A DNA stretch of 64,000 nucleotides, taken from positions 1 to 64,000 of the IMG/VR virus record IMGVR_UViG_3300010373_000040, one strand, 5' to 3'. Both the position numbers and the translations under genes were made by a program. The DNA is from a virus. The notes under the pieces were generated by a model. It saw only the letters and a program-made list of their open reading frames with translations, was not told where the DNA came from and did not search any database. Below are positions 14,201 through 52,914 of this stretch, piece by piece (within the stretch, counting starts at the first letter, position 1; every line of letters starts with the position of its first letter).

Positions 14201-14709
14201 TATCAGGTGTTAATTTTGGATCAGTTCCTACTGATGTATTAGCTGTGGAGCCTATGACCTACTATTCATCTGTATTTGAAAATATTAATATTACTGGAGG
14301 TTCTTTGCTTATAGCTACCCCAGCTATATCAGTTTCTTCTATAAAAAACTATCCTTCTGGAGGAACAGGAGGTATTTGTTATAGAGTAACTTTAGTAGAG
14401 TGCAATTTTGAAGGTTTTATTAAAATTCAAGATACTACAGTAACTCCAAATTATTCTTTTAGAAATATATTGACTAGATTTAGAGGTGCTGGATGGTATA
14501 AAAAAACAACAAATGCTTCTGTAAATACTACAGGATATAGTATAGATAATAGAATAACAATGGGGGCTGGTATTCCGTTAGATACTATAGCTTCTAATGC
14601 TTCAGATGTTGATTATAAAGTTCAAGATGGCACTAAAATTTATGGCATCCAGAATGTAATATCAGGAGGGAATATAGTTGAAACACCAGTAAATATAACT
14701 TTAGTATAA
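11293..14709 (+). CDS. Tail fibre/spike with long beta-helix-like region (receptor binding)
   Basis: 1138 aa, Thr/Asn/Ile-rich repeats (xxIGxxN, SxFENI); N-terminal QAT..FVTPANL fibre motif; YDFRGVVYRRW segment. Confidence 0.75.
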   Translation: MSVIGVKQNKAWFIGGSSRPLNARGMTVDFQNNGEPDTNVFRDQIESSLQKRVLDDFQDQATFTDINVRTTPDKFVTPANLPEVLAGTTGVSVNVVAAPDETTPYTTYNVSVDKAVYADMLSRTNTKVLTAANAPIVTADPALGNIAVVTPVQNGNAIEYQVKVLALPVPSLIIDITYANLVTAIGASTLAPGFWYRFPYQCIHTIPYTTDLNTSSTLTIPTEHLLVQAINTNTLDRTTVRSMEHPQDIIHWRWEDNVVVTPTNEDPLFTTLYLDTIDPLMPNVFTKGAVLSTPYTRPGRIYYREDTIQRISTPYDFRGVVYRRWALKKDGSGNYVYKNTLTYTPGTLYKHHDVILNAGVNWLVIYPFTATASISNHNYNLVSLNDMIASATGNTPQFIATNSTSFVIFDTDNQYFTSTKVEIDVDTPYEDHFTFYNAAGTLQAFNVKIKDYIPAWIEAVTWEFYPNVVFGTHLGGGITPITNVTIGNFSYDLTMFNVTSVTISDYCRNIFINGRASGNIGDIIVEENNQFLHIDQSPVGGDSVTVKRLICKIGLGNRGMIIHGGSYDIGNNNNRIVSYNTSNLVLGDTNYVAGFVSGTHEIEDFNSFVTFNSCVTNTMGNRNRNVFNILGTNTKFGDYNTDISSLKPNLIEGVGVPHSNNVIGDYNSLIVVSGTNNYYNRVASMSIPDGYTITSCSFENLAGGIYLVNSGAGYSFTRSSFKDITNTISVTDTTITDSEIFKCPSLSLTTVALVNSKLRICSNITISSVSITSTSFENVNTATITLGISSSIVYSKFEKISNLNITYLVQAIIGYLQITNNSTLNLTSTLTTGITNVIINHVTLDNTSNINILELNNTLSKVYISNTAGLSIYYGNLTNCNFITTVNLDLGSIIPLSLVPANSKVTISDTTFENIDGVQVLPTTNDGSSITNFIWNIISTTFNNMNSCLIYLLAKSAKTNQTNACVFRSVSGVNFGSVPTDVLAVEPMTYYSSVFENINITGGSLLIATPAISVSSIKNYPSGGTGGICYRVTLVECNFEGFIKIQDTTVTPNYSFRNILTRFRGAGWYKKTTNASVNTTGYSIDNRITMGAGIPLDTIASNASDVDYKVQDGTKIYGIQNVISGGNIVETPVNITLV

Positions 14710-15350
14710 TGAAGATAGCAGATCATGTATATGTAATCAATCTGGATAGGAGAACTGATAGATTAGAAAAGATACAAGAGAGATTTGATCTTTTGGGTTT
14801 AGATTTTGAAAGAGTTTCTGCAATTGATGGTAAAACATTAGATATAAAACTCCCAGAACAAACTCCAGATAAGAGATGGAATTCTGCTGCCTACGCCTTA
14901 TGTCTAACAACTATTGGTATTTTAAAGGATGCTGAAGAGAAAGGGTATCAAAACATATTAATCTTTGAAGATGATGTAGACTTTATACCAAAGTTTAACC
15001 CATACATCAATGTTTATATGGGAGAGTTAGAAGATAGATTGTATGATTTTGCTTTCTTAGGTTACACTCTTCCTGGAATGTGTACAACTAGTCCTATGAC
15101 TCCTAGATGGGATAAAGTACATTCTATGGTTAGCTGTCATGCTTATATTATAAATAAACATGTTTTTCCTATGTATAGGAAAATGCTTGAGAGATTAGAT
15201 AATCCTATAGATTATTATGTGAACAGAATTGTAGGAGGTAGGTTGAATTCATTATGTGCCATACCATTAGGTGGTGAAAAATTGGTATTTCAGGAAAATG
15301 GTTTTAGTGATATTGAAAATGCTGAATATAATGTAGAATTTACAAGATGA
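14709..15350 (+). CDS. Glycosyltransferase family 25
   Basis: YVINLDRRTDR, RVSAIDG, ILIFEDD and HAYII motifs characteristic of GT25. Confidence 0.88.
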   Translation: MKIADHVYVINLDRRTDRLEKIQERFDLLGLDFERVSAIDGKTLDIKLPEQTPDKRWNSAAYALCLTTIGILKDAEEKGYQNILIFEDDVDFIPKFNPYINVYMGELEDRLYDFAFLGYTLPGMCTTSPMTPRWDKVHSMVSCHAYIINKHVFPMYRKMLERLDNPIDYYVNRIVGGRLNSLCAIPLGGEKLVFQENGFSDIENAEYNVEFTR

Positions 15351-29987: not shown

Positions 29988-31088
29988 TTATTTTAAGTTA
30001 GTTATTCTATTATACATATCGTCTGTCATTAAATCAGGTCTAGGAATTTCAAAGAATAGCGAGCTTTCTCCCAAATATCCATAACCTGCAGCTATGTTAG
30101 AAGCCCCCCATCTATTCTTCATTATCCCAATAATCCTAACTCTATCCTTCAATCTCTCCACATCATACCCCATGAACTCCTTAATCCCATAGTTATGTGG
30201 TGCAAACCCATAAATTACATAATCAGAAGACTCATAGAGATTACCTGTGCCTTTTAGATCAGAGGCTTGGGGAAGTAAGAGATCATAGTTCCTATTCTTT
30301 TCTGATTTACCATGCATGTTCCTTTCTGCATTGTCCAAGGACCTATTAAGCTGGGAGAGTACTGTAAAACTGGCTCCAAATCTATTTCTACCATATACAG
30401 CTTTCTCACAGAATAGGTCTATTTTAGCTTTACTAGTAGTGGCATCCTTTTCTTGCTTAATACAATCAGAGTGATCTAGCATAAAGTTTCTGACAGCTTT
30501 AGGGTTATTAGGGATATACTTTGATCTCTTAGCATTCTCTTTGGAGCATTCTAATCCATTTTCATCAAAATATATCAAATATCCTTCTCCCATCATTACT
30601 TCCTGAACTTTCTTTGAAATACCTGTAGGATTAGTAGGCTCTTCTATAAACTCTACCATATCGTCAAGTCTCTCAAAGTAGCCTCTGTATCCTGAGATAA
30701 GTTTATAGAGCTCATCATTGAGTCTATTTTTAGCATTTCTGGTAGCAATAATATCAGGAGGAACAACAAGTTTATGATCTTTAAATAACTTCAAAGATAT
30801 AAGCTTTAACAAAACAGAAACTTTATCAATCTCCATTGTGTAAAATATGCATTTGTAGTCTATATCAGGTTCCTTCAACATGTGCTCATAGGGAGAGTAG
30901 ATATAGGAGTACAAAGCCATACTCGTCTTCCCCACGCCACTACCCATAGCAAGTGTGGTAAACTTCTTAGGTTGTATATTAGGAATAAAACTTGAGAGTT
31001 TAGTAAGACCAAAGTCTACTCCAGTGTTCAACCCTTCTCTACCTCTATCTATCTCTTCTAAAGCATCATCAAATGTACTTCTTCCCAT
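29988..31088 (-). CDS. dnaB: Replicative DnaB-like helicase
   Basis: GSGVGKT, FYTME, MLDH, LSQLNR, KNRWG. Confidence 0.88.
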   Translation of the reverse strand: MGRSTFDDALEEIDRGREGLNTGVDFGLTKLSSFIPNIQPKKFTTLAMGSGVGKTSMALYSYIYSPYEHMLKEPDIDYKCIFYTMEIDKVSVLLKLISLKLFKDHKLVVPPDIIATRNAKNRLNDELYKLISGYRGYFERLDDMVEFIEEPTNPTGISKKVQEVMMGEGYLIYFDENGLECSKENAKRSKYIPNNPKAVRNFMLDHSDCIKQEKDATTSKAKIDLFCEKAVYGRNRFGASFTVLSQLNRSLDNAERNMHGKSEKNRNYDLLLPQASDLKGTGNLYESSDYVIYGFAPHNYGIKEFMGYDVERLKDRVRIIGIMKNRWGASNIAAGYGYLGESSLFFEIPRPDLMTDDMYNRITNLK

Positions 31089-31699
31089 TATATAACAGTT
31101 TTTGTTGTTTCAGACTTACTATTGCTGTCACCAATCAAATCATCTAAACTACCCCACATCTCATCAAATATAAATGATCTGAGAGTAAAGTTTAATACTC
31201 CTAATTCTTTAGCTTTTCTAACTTTTGATACAATACTTTGATGAAGCTCTTTATTACTACCAATCTTTTTAGAATACATTAGTATTAAAGCATCTTTATC
31301 CCAATAGGTATCACCAATTTTCTCACCCTTCTTTAGAATCACTGATCTACCATCAATTATAGTAGTATTAGGATAAGCATCCCAAAGCTCTTCTCCTGCT
31401 GTATTAGAATCAACATAGTAAGCTTCTTGAAACTCATCTGTAAGATAGATATTAGCAAAATTAAGATCATCAGGAGTCTTAATAAATCTACCATCAATAA
31501 TACCTTTATCAATCATCTCCTGTACACCATCCTTACTAAACTTACCTTTTCCTAATTGATCTAGTATAATCTTAATAAATTCTAAGTATTCTGGATGCTG
31601 CTCATTAGCCATAAAAGCACAGTGAGCAAGAAGAAGACCCTCAATACTATGAAGGTCATACTTCTTCATTATTTTTGTCAATTGTTTTACGTCTATCAT
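31088..31699 (-). CDS. Putative replication initiator/helicase-associated protein
   Basis: EELWDAYP motif; position directly upstream of DnaB. Confidence 0.45.
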   Translation of the reverse strand: MIDVKQLTKIMKKYDLHSIEGLLLAHCAFMANEQHPEYLEFIKIILDQLGKGKFSKDGVQEMIDKGIIDGRFIKTPDDLNFANIYLTDEFQEAYYVDSNTAGEELWDAYPNTTIIDGRSVILKKGEKIGDTYWDKDALILMYSKKIGSNKELHQSIVSKVRKAKELGVLNFTLRSFIFDEMWGSLDDLIGDSNSKSETTKTVI

Positions 31700-31929: not shown

Positions 31930-33214
31930 CTAATTCACTAATACTATTCACTTTAATAATTCCTTTTTTACCTTTCTGACATGACTTGAGCCAATGTTCG
32001 TCCTTACTATCCTTCAAGTAAACATTCACAATCAAAGCCAACTTATCCTCTCCTTCATGTCTAGTAGATCTCCATTCCCTTTGAGAGTTCTTCTCTGGTT
32101 TAGAATTTCTACCATATACTATAGAAGCGTTACATCCTGAGATGTCCAAACCTAAGTCAGCAGCTCTCACAGTATTAAGTCTAGTAAAATCTCCAGCATT
32201 AAACATCTTGATGTAAAGCTCTCTAACTTTCTTAGCTCCTAGTTTAGTAGCAGAACCTTTCTTACCAACTTTAAACCCATATTTCTCCAATAACTCATTA
32301 GGAAGTTCCTGACCTTTTATCTGACTGTGGTAAGTCTTACTATTAGGAAGAAGTTCTGTAAGCTTCTCAGCAGCATCTATTGAAGCTCCAAAGGTAATAG
32401 CTTTCCTATCTGGTAGAGCCTTTAGAATCTCTGCTACAGTCTTGATCTTACCTAGATGATTCTGGATAAACTTAACTCTCTTTTGAGTAGCATCTTGCCA
32501 GATATTAGCTTTCCTTGAATATTCCTTAGCTAGAATCTCATAAGAAGGTCCTTGAATCCCGTTAGCTTTGACATAGTTTAAAGCTCCTCCATAGGTTAGG
32601 CATTCCATAGCAGTATGAAAGTCTTGTCCAAATGTGGCAAATGTCTCATCTACTACTATGTTATTCTTATCATAGTATTCTCTCTCTGGGAGGGTTAGTT
32701 CTAATCCTAGATTGTATTCTATACTATCAGATACCCACCCCTTCTCTAAAGCTTCCTGCTTAGTTAAAGTATAAGCACAAGGTAGGAATGATCCTATGAT
32801 TCTTTTATTATCGCTAGACCATGTACCACTGAGTGCAACTAAATAGGCTCCATTAGCTAATTCAAATATCCTTGAGAATACACGTCCTATGCAGAACAAT
32901 GCTGCCTCATCAATGATAGTTATCTCAGTATTGAGAGGTTCATTCTTTATAGTAACACCATTAATAACTAGAACTTGGTAGTTAGTCACATTCCATTTAG
33001 GAAGTTCTAGCTCCCATTGTTCTTTCAAATTATCTGTAGGAACTATTACAGACACTCTATAAGCAGGTCTAAGGGCTTGAACTCTTAGAATGAATAGTAT
33101 AGCCATTCTGGTCTTGCCAGCCGCACCTACGACATCTAAATAGCATCTACCCTTATGTTTAATAATGGATTCAACCACCTCCTCCTGCATTATGTCTTTT
33201 GAAGATTTAATCAT
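31895..33214 (-). CDS. Superfamily 2 helicase
   Basis: GAAGKT, IVPT..L..QW, IIDEA, LSGT, LGLDISGC, QREWRSTR. Confidence 0.85.
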   Translation of the reverse strand: MIKSSKDIMQEEVVESIIKHKGRCYLDVVGAAGKTRMAILFILRVQALRPAYRVSVIVPTDNLKEQWELELPKWNVTNYQVLVINGVTIKNEPLNTEITIIDEAALFCIGRVFSRIFELANGAYLVALSGTWSSDNKRIIGSFLPCAYTLTKQEALEKGWVSDSIEYNLGLELTLPEREYYDKNNIVVDETFATFGQDFHTAMECLTYGGALNYVKANGIQGPSYEILAKEYSRKANIWQDATQKRVKFIQNHLGKIKTVAEILKALPDRKAITFGASIDAAEKLTELLPNSKTYHSQIKGQELPNELLEKYGFKVGKKGSATKLGAKKVRELYIKMFNAGDFTRLNTVRAADLGLDISGCNASIVYGRNSKPEKNSQREWRSTRHEGEDKLALIVNVYLKDSKDEHWLKSCQKGKKGIIKVNSISELVENFKKRLDGR

Positions 33215-49484: not shown

Positions 49485-49907
49485 ATGATTAAAGCAATAG
49501 TAGATTCAGTAAGTGTTAGTAATGGAGAAGTAACCAAGTTCTCAGTAATAGATGATGCTAGAGGTACTGTAGGAAGCTTTCAGTTGTTTGAGAGTGATGA
49601 GAGTAAATATGGACAGTATAAGGTTGGTGATGAGTTTAGCTTAGAGTTATTCCCTACTGGGTTTGTTATGCCTGAATACAAACATAAAGAACCTACTTCA
49701 GTGGTTGAGCCTATACCAGAGCCTGTAGAAGAACCAACCTTTATAGATAAGGTGAAAGACTTTTTCACCCCAGCTTCTACTACAGAAAGCCCAGAAACAG
49801 TATCTATCACTCCAGAGGTTGTAGTTCCTCCTGTAGAACCAACTCCAGGATTAGATGCTCCTACATTTACAGCACCAACTACTGATAGTCCTGCTCCTAC
49901 AGTATAA
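49485..49907 (+). CDS. Hypothetical protein with Pro/Thr/Glu-rich tail
   Basis: 140 aa. Confidence 0.6.
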   Translation: MIKAIVDSVSVSNGEVTKFSVIDDARGTVGSFQLFESDESKYGQYKVGDEFSLELFPTGFVMPEYKHKEPTSVVEPIPEPVEEPTFIDKVKDFFTPASTTESPETVSITPEVVVPPVEPTPGLDAPTFTAPTTDSPAPTV

Positions 49908-50018
49908 TCAATATACTTATTCTGCATCCCATTAGAACTGCACGCTTAGAATAAGTCTTATGTTAACCCCTCCCTAGATAGTATCTTTGGACCCCATCCT
50001 ATCTCGAATTAGGAAACT

Positions 50019-50058
50019 ATCCCTCTGAGGTTAAAATCTTAGAGGGATTTGTTTGTTT
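50019..50058 (+). terminator. Intrinsic terminator insulating the tRNA operon
   Basis: atccctctgag..cttagagggat followed by ttgtttgttt. Confidence 0.75.
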
Positions 50059-50074
50059 ATATTAATCTATCTAC

Positions 50075-50082
50075 TATATTTG
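50075..50082 (+). promoter_or_regulatory. -7 promoter TATATTTG of the tRNA operon
   Basis: TAnnTTTG 4 nt before the leader ATG. Confidence 0.65.
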
Positions 50083-50086
50083 TTGC

Positions 50087-50161
50087 ATGAACAATTTATC
50101 ACTACATCTTCAACCGCAGCGCACTCCCTTATCTAGGGAAGCAAGTGGTTATTGTGTGTAG
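50087..50161 (+). CDS. Leader peptide MNNLSLHLQPQRTPLSREASGYCV (attenuator)
   Basis: 24 codons between promoter and terminator; run CTA CAT CTT CAA CCG CAG CGC. Confidence 0.65.
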   Translation: MNNLSLHLQPQRTPLSREASGYCV

Positions 50162-50186
50162 TAGTAAAAAAGCTCCAACATTATTT

Positions 50187-50221
50187 ATCCCCTTGCTGAG
50201 AAGTTAGGGGATTTCTGTTTT
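50187..50221 (+). terminator. Attenuator terminator upstream of the tRNAs
   Basis: atcccct-tgctgagaagtt-aggggat followed by ttctgtttt. Confidence 0.7.
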
Positions 50222-50229
50222 ATATACAT

Positions 50230-50303
50230 ATAGTGGGATAACGGTCAGGTTGTTTACCTGCCTTGGAAGCAGGAGGTCGAGGGTTCAAATCCCTCCCACT
50301 ATA
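50230..50303 (+). tRNA. tRNA-Pro(UGG), atypical D arm
   Basis: Anticodon arm CCTGC-CTTGGAA-GCAGG; T arm GAGGG-TTCAAAT-CCCTC; acceptor ATAGTGG/CCACTAT. Confidence 0.7.
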
Positions 50304-50379
50304 CGACACAGGTTTTACGTACTGTCACCTGCCGAGAAACAAAAAAGACAACGATACAGTTAGGGAGAGACCTAAACAT

Positions 50380-50451
50380 TTTCCTGTATGCTAATTGGCA
50401 GGCAATCTGACTTTGACTCAGATGGTACAAGTTCGAATCTTGTCGGGAAAA
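50380..50451 (+). tRNA. tRNA-Gln(UUG)
   Basis: TTTCCTG/CGGGAAA acceptor; TCTGA-CTTTGAC-TCAGA; ACAAG-TTCGAAT-CTTGT. Confidence 0.88.
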
Positions 50452-50453
50452 CT

Positions 50454-50526
50454 GTAGAGTTGCGCTAAGTGGTTAAGCGGACTGCCTGTGAAGCAGTTTA
50501 TATGAGTTCGAGCCTCATACTCTACC
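50454..50526 (+). tRNA. tRNA-His(GUG)
   Basis: GTAGAGT/ACTCTAC acceptor, C73; ACTGC-CTGTGAA-GCAGT; ATGAG-TTCGAGC-CTCAT. Confidence 0.88.
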
Positions 50527-50529
50527 CAC

Positions 50530-50601
50530 ATCTCTGTAGATCAATGAATAGATCAAGTAGCTACGAACTACTAGATAGAGGTTTGAATCCTCTCGGAGAT
50601 A
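50530..50601 (+). tRNA. tRNA-Arg(ACG)
   Basis: ATCTCTG/CGGAGAT acceptor; AGTAG-CTACGAA-CTACT; AGAGG-TTTGAAT-CCTCT. Confidence 0.85.
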
Positions 50602-50604
50602 CCT

Positions 50605-50678
50605 GCCCAATTGGTGGAATTGGTAGACACACAGGTCTTAGAAACCTGTTTTTATAGGTTCGATTCCTATATTGGGTA
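50605..50678 (+). tRNA. tRNA-Leu(UAG) lacking a long variable arm
   Basis: GCCCAAT/ATTGGGT acceptor, A73; Leu-type D arm GTGGAATTGGTAGACAC; CAGGT-CTTAGAA-ACCTG; variable loop TTTTT. Confidence 0.85.
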
Positions 50679-50688
50679 CTTTAAAATT

Positions 50689-50722
50689 AAAGGTATGTTC
50701 TCTTGTGAGTATGCCTTTTTTT
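50689..50722 (+). terminator. Terminator closing the tRNA operon
   Basis: aaaggtatgttc..gagtatgccttttttt. Confidence 0.75.
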
Positions 50723-50801
50723 ATTTACTATTGTACATAATCACATATAGGTAAACACCTAAGTACATATATGTGAATAACACCTAAACACTAAACTTAT
50801 T

Positions 50802-51137
50802 ATGGAAACACTAATGACTTTTGGAGAAGCTCTTGAACTTGTTAAACAAGGGAAATTGATTTCTAGACAAGGTTGGAATGGTAAAGGTATGTTCATCTTC
50901 CAAAGACCTGAAGACAGCATTCACATCAGTACTGTAATTACTCAAGTAAAATCGCTCCCTGCTGCAGTAAAGAGCTTTTATACTTCTAGAGTATGGGCTG
51001 ATTCTGAGAACCAGATGGTTAAATTCACTCCATACTTGTGTATGAAAGCTGCTGATGATAGCATTGTAAATGGTTGGTTAGCATCTCAGACTGATATGTT
51101 GGCTAATGATTGGTCTGAGTTCAGCTACGGAGTATAA
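50802..51137 (+). CDS. tad2: DUF2829 / Thoeris anti-defence 2 (Tad2)-family sponge protein
   Basis: MTFGEAL..K.G..R.GWNGKGMF...YLCMK..GWLASQTDMLANDW signature. Confidence 0.85.
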   Translation: METLMTFGEALELVKQGKLISRQGWNGKGMFIFQRPEDSIHISTVITQVKSLPAAVKSFYTSRVWADSENQMVKFTPYLCMKAADDSIVNGWLASQTDMLANDWSEFSYGV

Positions 51138-51216: not shown

Positions 51217-51468
51217 ATGAATATCCCAAAAGAAGCAGTAGAGAAGTTTAAGACCATAGTTGAATTACGACTCTACTGCTATATTTGTGATAACTCTTTT
51301 GAAGGTATGTGGCAACTCACCTGGATAGAGAAGATGGAATTGAAAGATCAATACTTCATTAAAGCCAATCAAATCCCTAGAGCTTTAGAGAACCTAGTAA
51401 AAGAAGGAGTATTGAGTAGAGTTAAAAAAGGGGTTTATAAACTAGAAACACTTAATGAAGCCATATAA
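51217..51468 (+). CDS. Winged-helix DNA-binding protein
   Basis: I.RALENLVKEGVLSRVKKGVYKL. Confidence 0.6.
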   Translation: MNIPKEAVEKFKTIVELRLYCYICDNSFEGMWQLTWIEKMELKDQYFIKANQIPRALENLVKEGVLSRVKKGVYKLETLNEAI

Positions 51469-52152: not shown

Positions 52153-52360
52153 CCTTCCAGAGGCTATAGTATCGAGGATTCAGAAAGCTAGAGGTTTAGC
52201 AACTGAATCCTCTTTATCTTTGCAGAAACAAAGGTTAGAGATTTGTGATAAGTGTCCTGAGAAGAAAATGATAGGGACTGAGGTTTGTGGCCTCTGTGGC
52301 TGTTTTTTGCAGCTCAAGACATTAGTAGAAGATGAACATTGTCAAATTAAGAAATGGTAG
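52139..52360 (+). CDS. Small Cys-rich protein
   Basis: RLEICDKC..VCGLCGCFL..KT..EHC..KW; start moved to MSLSNLP. Confidence 0.65.
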   Translation: MSLSNLPEAIVSRIQKARGLATESSLSLQKQRLEICDKCPEKKMIGTEVCGLCGCFLQLKTLVEDEHCQIKKW

Positions 52361-52914
52361 ATATAGAAGAAATTACTATAGACAAGCTTATAAACGAATA
52401 TGGAGGAATTCATATTAGAGGGTATGAAGATTATATAGTCCTTCCGACAAGTGAAATATTTTCTATAAAGTTCAATACTATAAGAAAATTAGTTCCTCAG
52501 ATATTACATAAAAATGGAAAACCTTCGGCCTATAGACAAATTGTGGTAAGACAGCAGGGCAAAGACCCTGCCAGGAGGTTGATTCACAGAATTGTAGCAG
52601 AGACATTCATACCTAATCCAGAAAACAAACCTCAAGTGAATCACAAAGATGGTAATGGGTCTAATAACCATGTTGACAACTTAGAGTGGTGTACAGGTCA
52701 TGAAAATATGGCTCATAGCTTCAGAATATTAAAAAGAAGAATGGCTGTAGGAGAAAAAGTACATTTAAGTAAACTTACAGAAGAAGAGGTTATAATGATA
52801 CGAAAAATATATCCAAAGGGACATGCTACACAACAAGAGTTAGCCAAAATATTCAATTGTCATCCAACAACAATATATTCTGTTTTAAGTTACATAACAT
52901 GGAAACATATTTAA
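52354..52914 (+). CDS. HNH homing endonuclease with C-terminal HTH
   Basis: IHRIVAETFIPNPENKPQVNHKDG..NNHVDNLEWCT..EN..H; SKLT..QQELAK.F. Confidence 0.9.
   Translation: MVDIEEITIDKLINEYGGIHIRGYEDYIVLPTSEIFSIKFNTIRKLVPQILHKNGKPSAYRQIVVRQQGKDPARRLIHRIVAETFIPNPENKPQVNHKDGNGSNNHVDNLEWCTGHENMAHSFRILKRRMAVGEKVHLSKLTEEEVIMIRKIYPKGHATQQELAKIFNCHPTTIYSVLSYITWKHI

Follow-up and report, generated by a model that had tools for sequence, protein, structure and literature searches.

What phages gain from tRNA genes of their own has been debated for fifty years, and IMG/VR virus record IMGVR_UViG_3300010373_000040 raises the question in a compact form: why would a phage carry a small tRNA set that is complete for a single row of the codon table, and that differs from the set of its likely host at the one base governing an essential methylation? 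We analyzed positions 1 to 64,000 of this record (hereafter the window, 64 kb) and, where stated, the whole virus. At 50,230–50,679 the window holds five tRNA genes, one for each amino acid encoded by codons starting with C (CNN). All five have adenosine rather than guanosine at position 37 (A37 and G37, respectively), directly beside the anticodon, and they come with an apparent sensor of their own, a short open reading frame (ORF) upstream. The virus record measures 85,239 bp, has direct terminal repeats and is complete according to CheckV (100%). The whole genome has a G+C content of 33.8% and 101 ORFs covering 91% of it under the standard code. It encodes a crAss-like terminase, portal, major head protein and DNA polymerase, and the portal is around 25% identical to portals from phages of Bacteroides, Cellulophaga and Flavobacterium. 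Two soil metagenome runs contain the stretch and may be its source, and no RNA run was among those listed as containing it. The host phylum is likely Bacteroidota, to judge from the crAss-like structural genes, a tRNA cassette held in common with a Cellulophaga phage and the promoter consensus generally attributed to this phylum.

Five tRNA genes for one codon row

The five genes all lie on the plus strand, in the order tRNA-Pro(UGG) (50,230–50,304, anticodon loop CTTGGAA), tRNA-Gln(UUG) (50,380–50,452, CTTTGAC), tRNA-His(GUG) (50,454–50,527, CTGTGAA), tRNA-Arg(ACG) (50,530–50,603, CTACGAA) and tRNA-Leu(UAG) (50,605–50,679, CTTAGAA). The initial annotation of this locus had described these loops as all carrying G36 and A37; reading them again directly from the sequence gave exactly the same letters, and ARAGORN and the covariance model RF00005 agree (RF00005 scores of 50.1–63.8 bits, gathering cut-off 29). 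Its statement that no tRNA for another codon row is present extends to the complete 85,239-bp genome, in which neither RF00005 nor ARAGORN found a sixth tRNA gene. The methyltransferase TrmD, which makes 1-methylguanosine at position 37 (m1G37), requires G36 followed by G37. As position 37 is A in all five phage tRNAs, none of them can carry m1G37.

Pairwise identity among the five tRNAs is only 52–63%, and their common G36-A37 is therefore no relic of recent duplication. A rough estimate of the chance that five of around 40 anticodon species all fall among the around 11 CNN species is 7e-4, but this null is inappropriate for a set that is inherited as one block. Given the frequencies of A37 in viral tRNAs, the probability that all five have A37 is around 0.09. 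The CCA end is not encoded in any of the genes. The tRNA-Pro has an odd D arm and is 75–83% identical to phage-type tRNA-Pro genes at six other loci (L144, L138, L140, L136, L141 and L137; L and G numbers are our handles for loci and genomes). The tRNA-Leu(UAG) has a Leu-type D arm and discriminator A, and lacks the long arm of class II tRNA-Leu (around 83–90 nt), being 75 nt long with a variable region of 5 nt. We found this short type in at least 117 IMG/VR contigs (L152–L268), as well as in extra tRNA arrays of four sampled Bacteroidota genomes.

Some smaller features of the genes are recorded here. Position -1 of the tRNA-His gene (50,453) is T rather than G, as it is in L144, PhiCrAssBcn23 and T5; G stands at this position in host genes, L209 and L239. 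In tRNA-Arg(ACG), the D loop lacks the usual GG and the T loop reads TTTGAAT where the norm is TTCRANY, which may represent a matched change of the G19–C56 contact. The spacer between tRNA-Pro and tRNA-Gln (50,305–50,379) measures 75 bases, the remaining gaps between genes 1–2 bases, and spacers of 57 bases lie at the equivalent place in phage phi19:1 and L209.

One explanation for such genes is supply and demand: the operon would be an autoregulated supplement for heavily used codons, and A37 a lineage trait with no special role, tolerated thanks to a strong G36:C1 pair and the brief working time of phage tRNAs. Counts over 25,561 phage codons speak on both sides. CCN, CAR, CAY and CTN codons together make up 3,226 of them, CTN accounts for 993 of the 2,154 Leu codons, and Pro is encoded mainly by CCT, Gln by CAA and His by CAT; CCG occurs 15 times. 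Among the 870 Arg codons, however, 826 are AGA or AGG and only 44 are CGN (CGC twice), of which tRNA-Arg(ACG) reads 36 (CGT, CGC and CGA). Codon supply therefore fails to explain this gene, which is nonetheless kept in four cassettes, and an A+T-rich phage would be expected to supplement UUA and AGA instead. The initial annotation had argued in the same sense from a preference for AGA, and the counts bear it out. Taking these points together with those on position 37 below, we consider supply and demand a rather unlikely account of the whole. As a separate observation, CGN codons are around four times more frequent in minus-strand genes (replication, early; 29 of 7,886 codons) than in plus-strand genes (mostly structural; 15 of 17,675).

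The set is an inherited cassette common to unrelated Bacteroidota phages, and is not unique to the window. The Cellulophaga phage phi19:1 (NC_021799.1, around 31057–31495) has only five tRNAs in 57 kb, namely Pro-UGG, Gln-UUG, His-GUG, a short Leu-UAG of 75 nt and Arg-ACG, all with A37. Four of these are annotated in the public record; the fifth, Pro(UGG) with A37 at around 31057–31130 (L280, 2475–2549), was found by ARAGORN and RF00005. Locus L209 (G116) carries the identical five anticodons as its sole tRNAs, all A37, and G118 carries the identical five as its sole tRNAs with A37 in four and G37 in His. Overall, A37 is present in 19 of the 20 genes of the five-member cassette across the four phages, that of the window included, and in three of the four full cassettes every tRNA has it. 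Shorter versions also occur. L144 has Pro, Gln, His, Leu-UAA and Leu-UAG, all with A37; L239, which has a crAss-like terminase, has Pro with G37 and His, Leu and Gln with A37; and L138 (G111), a complete genome of 42 kb, has only Pro, His (G37) and Gln. Of the eight IMG/VR contigs matched by a pattern built on the odd D arm of the tRNA-Pro, seven have A37 in Pro.

Extra phage-type arrays of 4–11 genes were observed in Bacteroidota assemblies: L136 (G105:C1:218000-234000), L137 (G037:C3:441000-457000), L279 (G006:C1:2618000-2624000) and L278 (G011:C45). They contain a short Leu-UAG and A37 versions of Pro or Gln, alongside the normal G37 genes, and in L136 a leader ORF matches the four tRNAs of its array.

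The closest relatives of the phage by terminase do not have the cassette. G002, a complete genome, has no tRNA, and G001 has Arg-UCU and Leu-UAA with no recognisable leader upstream, a distribution that fits supply and demand. Searches with the tRNA region itself gave no match by megablast against the phage collection, an exact search of IMG/VR with the Gln–His junction and a strict tRNA-Pro pattern search likewise gave none, and the glycosyltransferase gene at 14,709–15,350 had no relative among the genome contigs and hence offered no hint of the host.

Position 37 in the likely host phylum and in viruses

In order to compare these loops with those of the likely host phylum, Bacteroidota genomes reached by a 16S probe were sampled with tRNA-shaped patterns in which position 37 was left open as a purine, and the counts were taken by eye from the printed pattern matches. 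For Pro-UGG, searched in 101 genomes, the 86 rows with a paired anticodon stem among the matches listed (150 of 209) comprised 84 with G37 and two with A37. The two A37 genes sit in extra phage-like arrays together with short Leu-UAG and the same odd Pro D arm. In searches of 61 genomes, G37 was present in all 52 with a recognisable His-GUG and in all 24 with a recognisable Gln-UUG, and Arg-ACG, found in 44, had G37 in 33 and A37 in 11. Leu-UAG was of the long-arm type with G37 in 46 of 46 genomes. In genome G026, ARAGORN assigned G37 to each of the six CNN decoders examined, which were Pro, His, the two Gln, Arg-ACG and Leu-UAG, and in genome G038 it found A37 in Arg-ACG, with His and Leu having G37. 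According to ARAGORN, a candidate match for Gln in G038 and G042 is no tRNA, and it was discarded. The expectation in the initial annotation that host counterparts carry G37 therefore holds for Pro, His, Gln and Leu-UAG in this sample, and for Arg-ACG only in part.

In the likely host phylum, then, the whole CNN row has G37, with Arg-ACG variable, and the phage set has the opposite purine throughout. Compared with the consensus of the phylum, the phage loops differ at position 37 and, in Pro and His, also at position 32. The TrmD family (PF01746) was found in 41 of 41 sampled Bacteroidota genomes and is absent from the phage. According to a tRNA sequencing study, tRNA-Arg(ACG) of Barnesiella viscericola, a member of the Bacteroidota, carries m1G37 and I34, and m1G signatures were seen wherever position 37 is G (PMC6297222). 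The CNN decoders of the host phylum are presumably m1G37-modified.

This contrast also gives room to an explanation by nuclease escape, which we regard as unlikely. Here a host defence, an anticodon nuclease or another tRNA-inactivating enzyme, would target CNN loops with G36-(m1)G37, and the A37 versions, uncuttable, would be induced upon loss of the host tRNAs. The general idea that phage tRNAs differ from those of the host at nuclease sites of the anticodon loop has been published, albeit in a paper whose main text is silent on position 37, G37 and A37 (PMC10264068). The phage loops do differ from those of the host phylum at position 37, and at 32 in Pro and His; the leader described below resembles a sensor of decoder shortage, and a Tad2-like anti-defence gene (50,802–51,137) directly follows the operon. 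A37 is, in addition, not tied to low G+C. On the other hand, position 37 varies independently in Pro and Leu-UAG, and one tRNA of some cassettes has G37, which is a poor fit to a single class-wide recognition element. Our literature searches yielded no nuclease of this specificity, and we know of none that acts on the CNN class.

Viral tRNAs were surveyed in the contigs retrieved with the short Leu-UAG pattern, which hold 1,419 tRNAs. Among the matches listed for these 117 contigs, the ratio of A37 to G37 was 35:31 for Pro-UGG, 50:61 for Leu-UAG, 26:12 for His, 34:9 for Gln-UUG and 25:12 for Arg-ACG; none of these five tRNA types had a pyrimidine at position 37 among the matches listed, and counts of unique sequences yielded the same picture. 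Phages of other hosts add to it: Pro has A37 in PaP3 and Vibrio phage 172P1, T5 has Leu-UAG with A37 and Pro with G37, and T4 has Pro with G37. A37 in CNN decoders is thus a widespread phage trait, set tRNA by tRNA and near-complete within the five-member cassette. We considered drift towards A+T as its origin, which is unsupported, as the G+C content of A37 loci is no lower and, for Leu-UAG, is higher.

For supply and demand, these results again speak on both sides. Among the matches listed, viral Pro-UGG and Leu-UAG have A37 roughly as often as G37, the two are mixed within contigs, and A37 extends to phages with other hosts (Pro in PaP3 and 172P1, Leu-UAG in T5), all of which would suit a trait of no special role. 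Strict G37 in the sampled Pro, Leu-UAG and His genes of Bacteroidota, by contrast, implies that A37 is not neutral there, and neither the missing link to low G+C nor the three full cassettes that are wholly A37 would be expected of such a trait. Whatever the explanation, around half of the sampled viral Pro-UGG and Leu-UAG genes have A37, and the sampled Bacteroidota have G37 save for two genes in phage-like arrays, a pattern that our literature searches did not turn up and that would bear on how strictly decoding needs m1G37.

A leader ORF matching the tRNA set

The operon lies on the plus strand between two terminator-like hairpins followed by T runs. The first (50,019–50,048; a 13-pair stem, then TTGTTTGTTT) would end the preceding transcription unit, and the second (50,689–50,718; a 12-pair stem, then TTTTTATTTAC) would end the tRNA operon. 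Bacteroidota promoters follow a consensus at -33/-7, and a pattern match to it, TTTG followed after 19 bases by TATATTTG, lies at 50,052–50,082. This promoter-like site ends 4 bases 5' of an ATG, and so close a position would give a near-leaderless mRNA. With five occurrences in the window and 2.27 expected, the pattern lacks significance on its own, and it is barely enriched upstream of ORFs (0.87 versus 0.66 per kb); a similar box lies 4–10 bases 5' of the leader ATG in L138, L144, L239 and L209.

The ATG opens a leader ORF of 24 codons (50,087–50,161; MNNLSLHLQPQRTPLSREASGYCV). Within it, the candidate sensor codons at 50,102–50,128 read CTA CAT CTT CAA CCG CAG CGC, seven consecutive CNN codons, followed by ACT and CCC, and all five tRNA species are matched by cognate codons within six consecutive codons from 50,105. 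This suggests that the phage monitors exactly these CNN decoders. Downstream of the ORF, a terminator-like element (50,188–50,221) consists of a hairpin at 50,188–50,211 (-12.5 kcal/mol), which a simple terminator scanner run on the window did not report, and the tail TTTCTGTTTT; it ends 8 bases 5' of the tRNA-Pro gene. A candidate antiterminator strand inside the leader ORF (50,140–50,148) can pair with the 5' arm of this terminator (50,189–50,197). A search of 49,900–50,800 for Rfam leader families (E up to 1) gave none, only the five tRNAs and two plastid matches at chance level.

The same design was found elsewhere. A hairpin with a T run occupies the equivalent position in eight loci (L209, L144, L239, L138, L142, L224, phi19:1 and G118). 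In six of these (L209, G118, phi19:1, L144, L239 and L138) the cassette is preceded by an ORF of 19–30 codons that has a box shortly 5' of its ATG and contains codons for His, Leu, Gln, Pro and Arg in close succession; a strong terminator follows around 60–85 bases past the stop codon. Outside the sensor run, the leader peptides of related cassettes are dissimilar. The content of the leader also tracks the tRNA set: L144, which has both Leu-UAA and Leu-UAG, has TTA beside CTG, and in L138 the absence of a tRNA-Leu goes with the absence of Leu codons. Leaders at three other loci match sets that reach beyond the CNN row, namely those of L224 (His, Asn, Ile, Ser and Arg), L142 (Pro, Tyr, Gln and Glu) and L136 (Asp, His, Pro and Leu). 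The existence of leader-gated tRNA sets of different composition also speaks for supply and demand.

We asked how often such matching arises in general. Among 62 non-identical clusters with 4–7 anticodon species, nine were preceded by an in-frame stretch of no more than n+2 codons in which every species was represented. The corresponding number was three for the reverse complement and one for the reversed sequence; when tRNA sets were swapped 100 times, it was 2.32 on average and never above 5. For clusters of three species the controls scored equally high and the test had no power. Separately, a conserved ORF of 34–49 amino acids with a terminal run of Glu codons was observed just 5' of tRNA-Glu or Glu-Asp genes in the IMG/VR loci L155, L194, L201, L211, L236, L246, L267 and others, and may be either a genuine small protein or a further leader.

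The locus might of course be an accident, an arbitrary handful of tRNAs that falls in one codon row behind an ORF that is a random frame. The six frames of the genome indeed contain 12 runs of at least seven C-starting triplets, and one of them, at 33,118–33,138 on the plus strand and antisense to a helicase gene, reads Gln-Pro-His-Leu-Arg-His-Leu and so also spells all five amino acids; five A37 out of five have a probability of around 0.09 given viral frequencies. Against this, the five anticodons, the short Leu, the five-amino-acid leader and the terminator recur in phi19:1, L209/G116 and G118, with diverged tRNAs and in different phage families, and identities of 70–83% between the tRNAs of related loci exclude assembly copies of one sequence. 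Moreover, the content of the leader shifts with the tRNA set in L144, L138, L224, L142 and L136. We therefore regard chance as highly improbable.

Readings of the operon and known counterparts

The reading that we favour, and to which we give about an even chance of being right, is that the locus is one small operon of working elongator tRNAs for the CNN row, providing an autoregulated, TrmD-independent supply. The operon would be transcribed from its own promoter-like site through the 24-codon leader ORF and the terminator hairpin, and the leader run His, Leu, Gln, Pro, Gln, Arg consists of exactly the codons of the five tRNAs. We infer that, when these sensor codons are read quickly, the terminator would form and little tRNA would be made. 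When CNN decoders are scarce, uncharged or faulty, the ribosome would slow down and the alternative pairing would block termination; the tRNAs would then be transcribed, processed, given their CCA ends and charged. Differing from the host tRNAs directly beside the anticodon, the A37 tRNAs would escape dependence on TrmD and could supply CNN decoding without that methylation. Where every CNN decoder has G37, loss of m1G37 would be expected to stall a leader reading His-Leu-Gln-Pro-Gln-Arg. The failure of the host decoders could be due to methylation loss, to a loop-directed nuclease or just to heavy demand. None of the 69 of 101 phage ORFs covered by protein-family scans indicates one of these causes, and no nuclease or TrmD inhibitor gene was found among those scanned.

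A bolder version holds that Bacteroidota phages exchange a self-regulating C-row cassette that replaces a failed TrmD-dependent class comprising every CNN tRNA, with the leader as the sensor of failure and A37 as the immunity. We put this forward tentatively and consider it more doubtful than not; a class-wide TrmD bypass, like nuclease escape, is plausible but unproven. If it were true, infected cells would undergo a still undescribed event that disables m1G37 tRNAs, for which the candidates would be a defence enzyme directed against the G36-m1G37 loop or a loss of methylation, through S-adenosylmethionine (SAM) or TrmD, during infection.

Several results weigh against a TrmD-independent, autoregulated supply. 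With regard to regulation, in the fold with a stalled ribosome eight of the ten bases of the terminator arm pair upstream, which 56 of 200 shuffles equal, and although the antiterminator pairing was present in seven of seven folded loci, 23–85 of 200 shuffles per locus were as good. The runs of C-starting triplets counted in the genome show that such runs can arise by chance, and the match of leader to set is imperfect, as the leaders of L144 and L138 contain CGT despite having no tRNA-Arg. Leaders of the same design precede the sets of L224, L142 and L136, so that the design is general and not tied to G36.

With regard to position 37, some cassette members have G37 (Pro in L239, His in G118 and L138), and in PhiCrAssBcn23, a crAss-like phage of Bacteroides, position 37 is G in Pro, Gln and Leu-UAG and A in His. 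Native Arg-ACG has A37 in 11 of the 44 sampled Bacteroidota. Among the matches listed, the states of Pro and Leu-UAG are independent within contigs (12, 15 / 13, 9; p = 0.39), and 11 of 51 contigs are uniform at position 37 compared with 6.9 in shuffles, a value of 11 being reached in 120 of 2000 shuffles. With independent Pro and Leu states and no clear excess of uniform contigs, there is no general class-wide switch. Furthermore, none of the 69 ORFs covered by the protein-family scans matched an RNA ligase, a kinase/phosphatase, a SAM lyase or a tRNA enzyme, and Bacteroidota is the likely host phylum on indirect grounds. The proposal of the initial annotation that the set was chosen to replace the G36-G37 class thus gains from the contrast with the host phylum and from the codon run of the leader; the idea of a choice made for this class outruns the data, given an inherited cassette, the frequency of A37 in viruses, the lack of correlation between Pro and Leu, the G37 members and the leaders for non-CNN sets.

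Of the genes downstream, the first past the operon (50,802–51,137, plus strand) is Tad2-like (Thoeris anti-defence 2, PF11195, E 2e-24), which places the operon beside an anti-defence gene and proves nothing further. It is followed by an ORF at 51,217–51,468 with a weak match to an AbiEi-type helix-turn-helix (E 3e-4, below the cut-off) and by an HNH endonuclease gene at 52,354–52,914.

The closest known counterpart is phage phi19:1 (Assiduviridae, host Cellulophaga baltica #19). Four of the loops of its five A37 tRNAs are identical to those of the window, and the Leu loop has C rather than A at position 38; upstream lie an ORF of 30 codons with the run His, Gln, Arg, Leu, Pro, Gln, Pro and a terminator hairpin. 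It differs in being a marine siphovirus of 57 kb, unrelated to crAss-like phages, with Leu-Arg as its last two genes (Arg-Leu in the window) and a leader that is unannotated. We found no published function for its tRNA cluster. As the cassette is present in a cultured phage–host pair, phi19:1 and C. baltica, the question of what it is a back-up against is open to bench work. Pro(UGG) with A37 is also found in PaP3 (NC_004466.2), whose anticodon arm is identical to that of the window tRNA-Pro, and in Vibrio phage 172P1; these phages, however, have Proteobacteria as hosts and carry mixed sets (Asn, Asp, Tyr and Pro; Gly, Gln and Pro). In one vibriophage, according to a 2026 review, most tRNA-Leu species carry m1G37 like their host analogs (PMC13191261).

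With regard to altered loops, van den Berg et al. (2023, eLife; PMC10264068) likewise describe phage anticodon loops that differ from those of the host and phage tRNAs that codon compensation does not explain, and propose escape from host anticodon nucleases. Their work deals with the positions at which VapC, PrrC and colicins D and E5 act, and its main text does not mention tRNA-Pro. In full-text literature searches, none of the papers returned dealt with A37 in the CNN decoders of phages or with control of phage tRNA genes by leader peptides.

The leader has its nearest likeness in the enterobacterial attenuators leuL, ilvL and relatives, in which a short ORF with a sensor run likewise precedes an intrinsic terminator, and a second pairing is possible. 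When E. coli lacks m1G37, ribosomes stall at CCN, CGG and CUA, and leuL, with four CUA codons, and ilvL, with Pro codons, are de-attenuated, as reported in PMC8384417. These attenuators control biosynthetic enzymes, whereas the leader in the window would control tRNAs, mixes five amino acids and would sit on a near-leaderless mRNA; its candidate antiterminator is without statistical support and no Rfam leader family matches it. Phage tRNAs with altered anticodon loops and attenuation by leader peptides are both already known kinds, and the cassette in the window is a variant of both.

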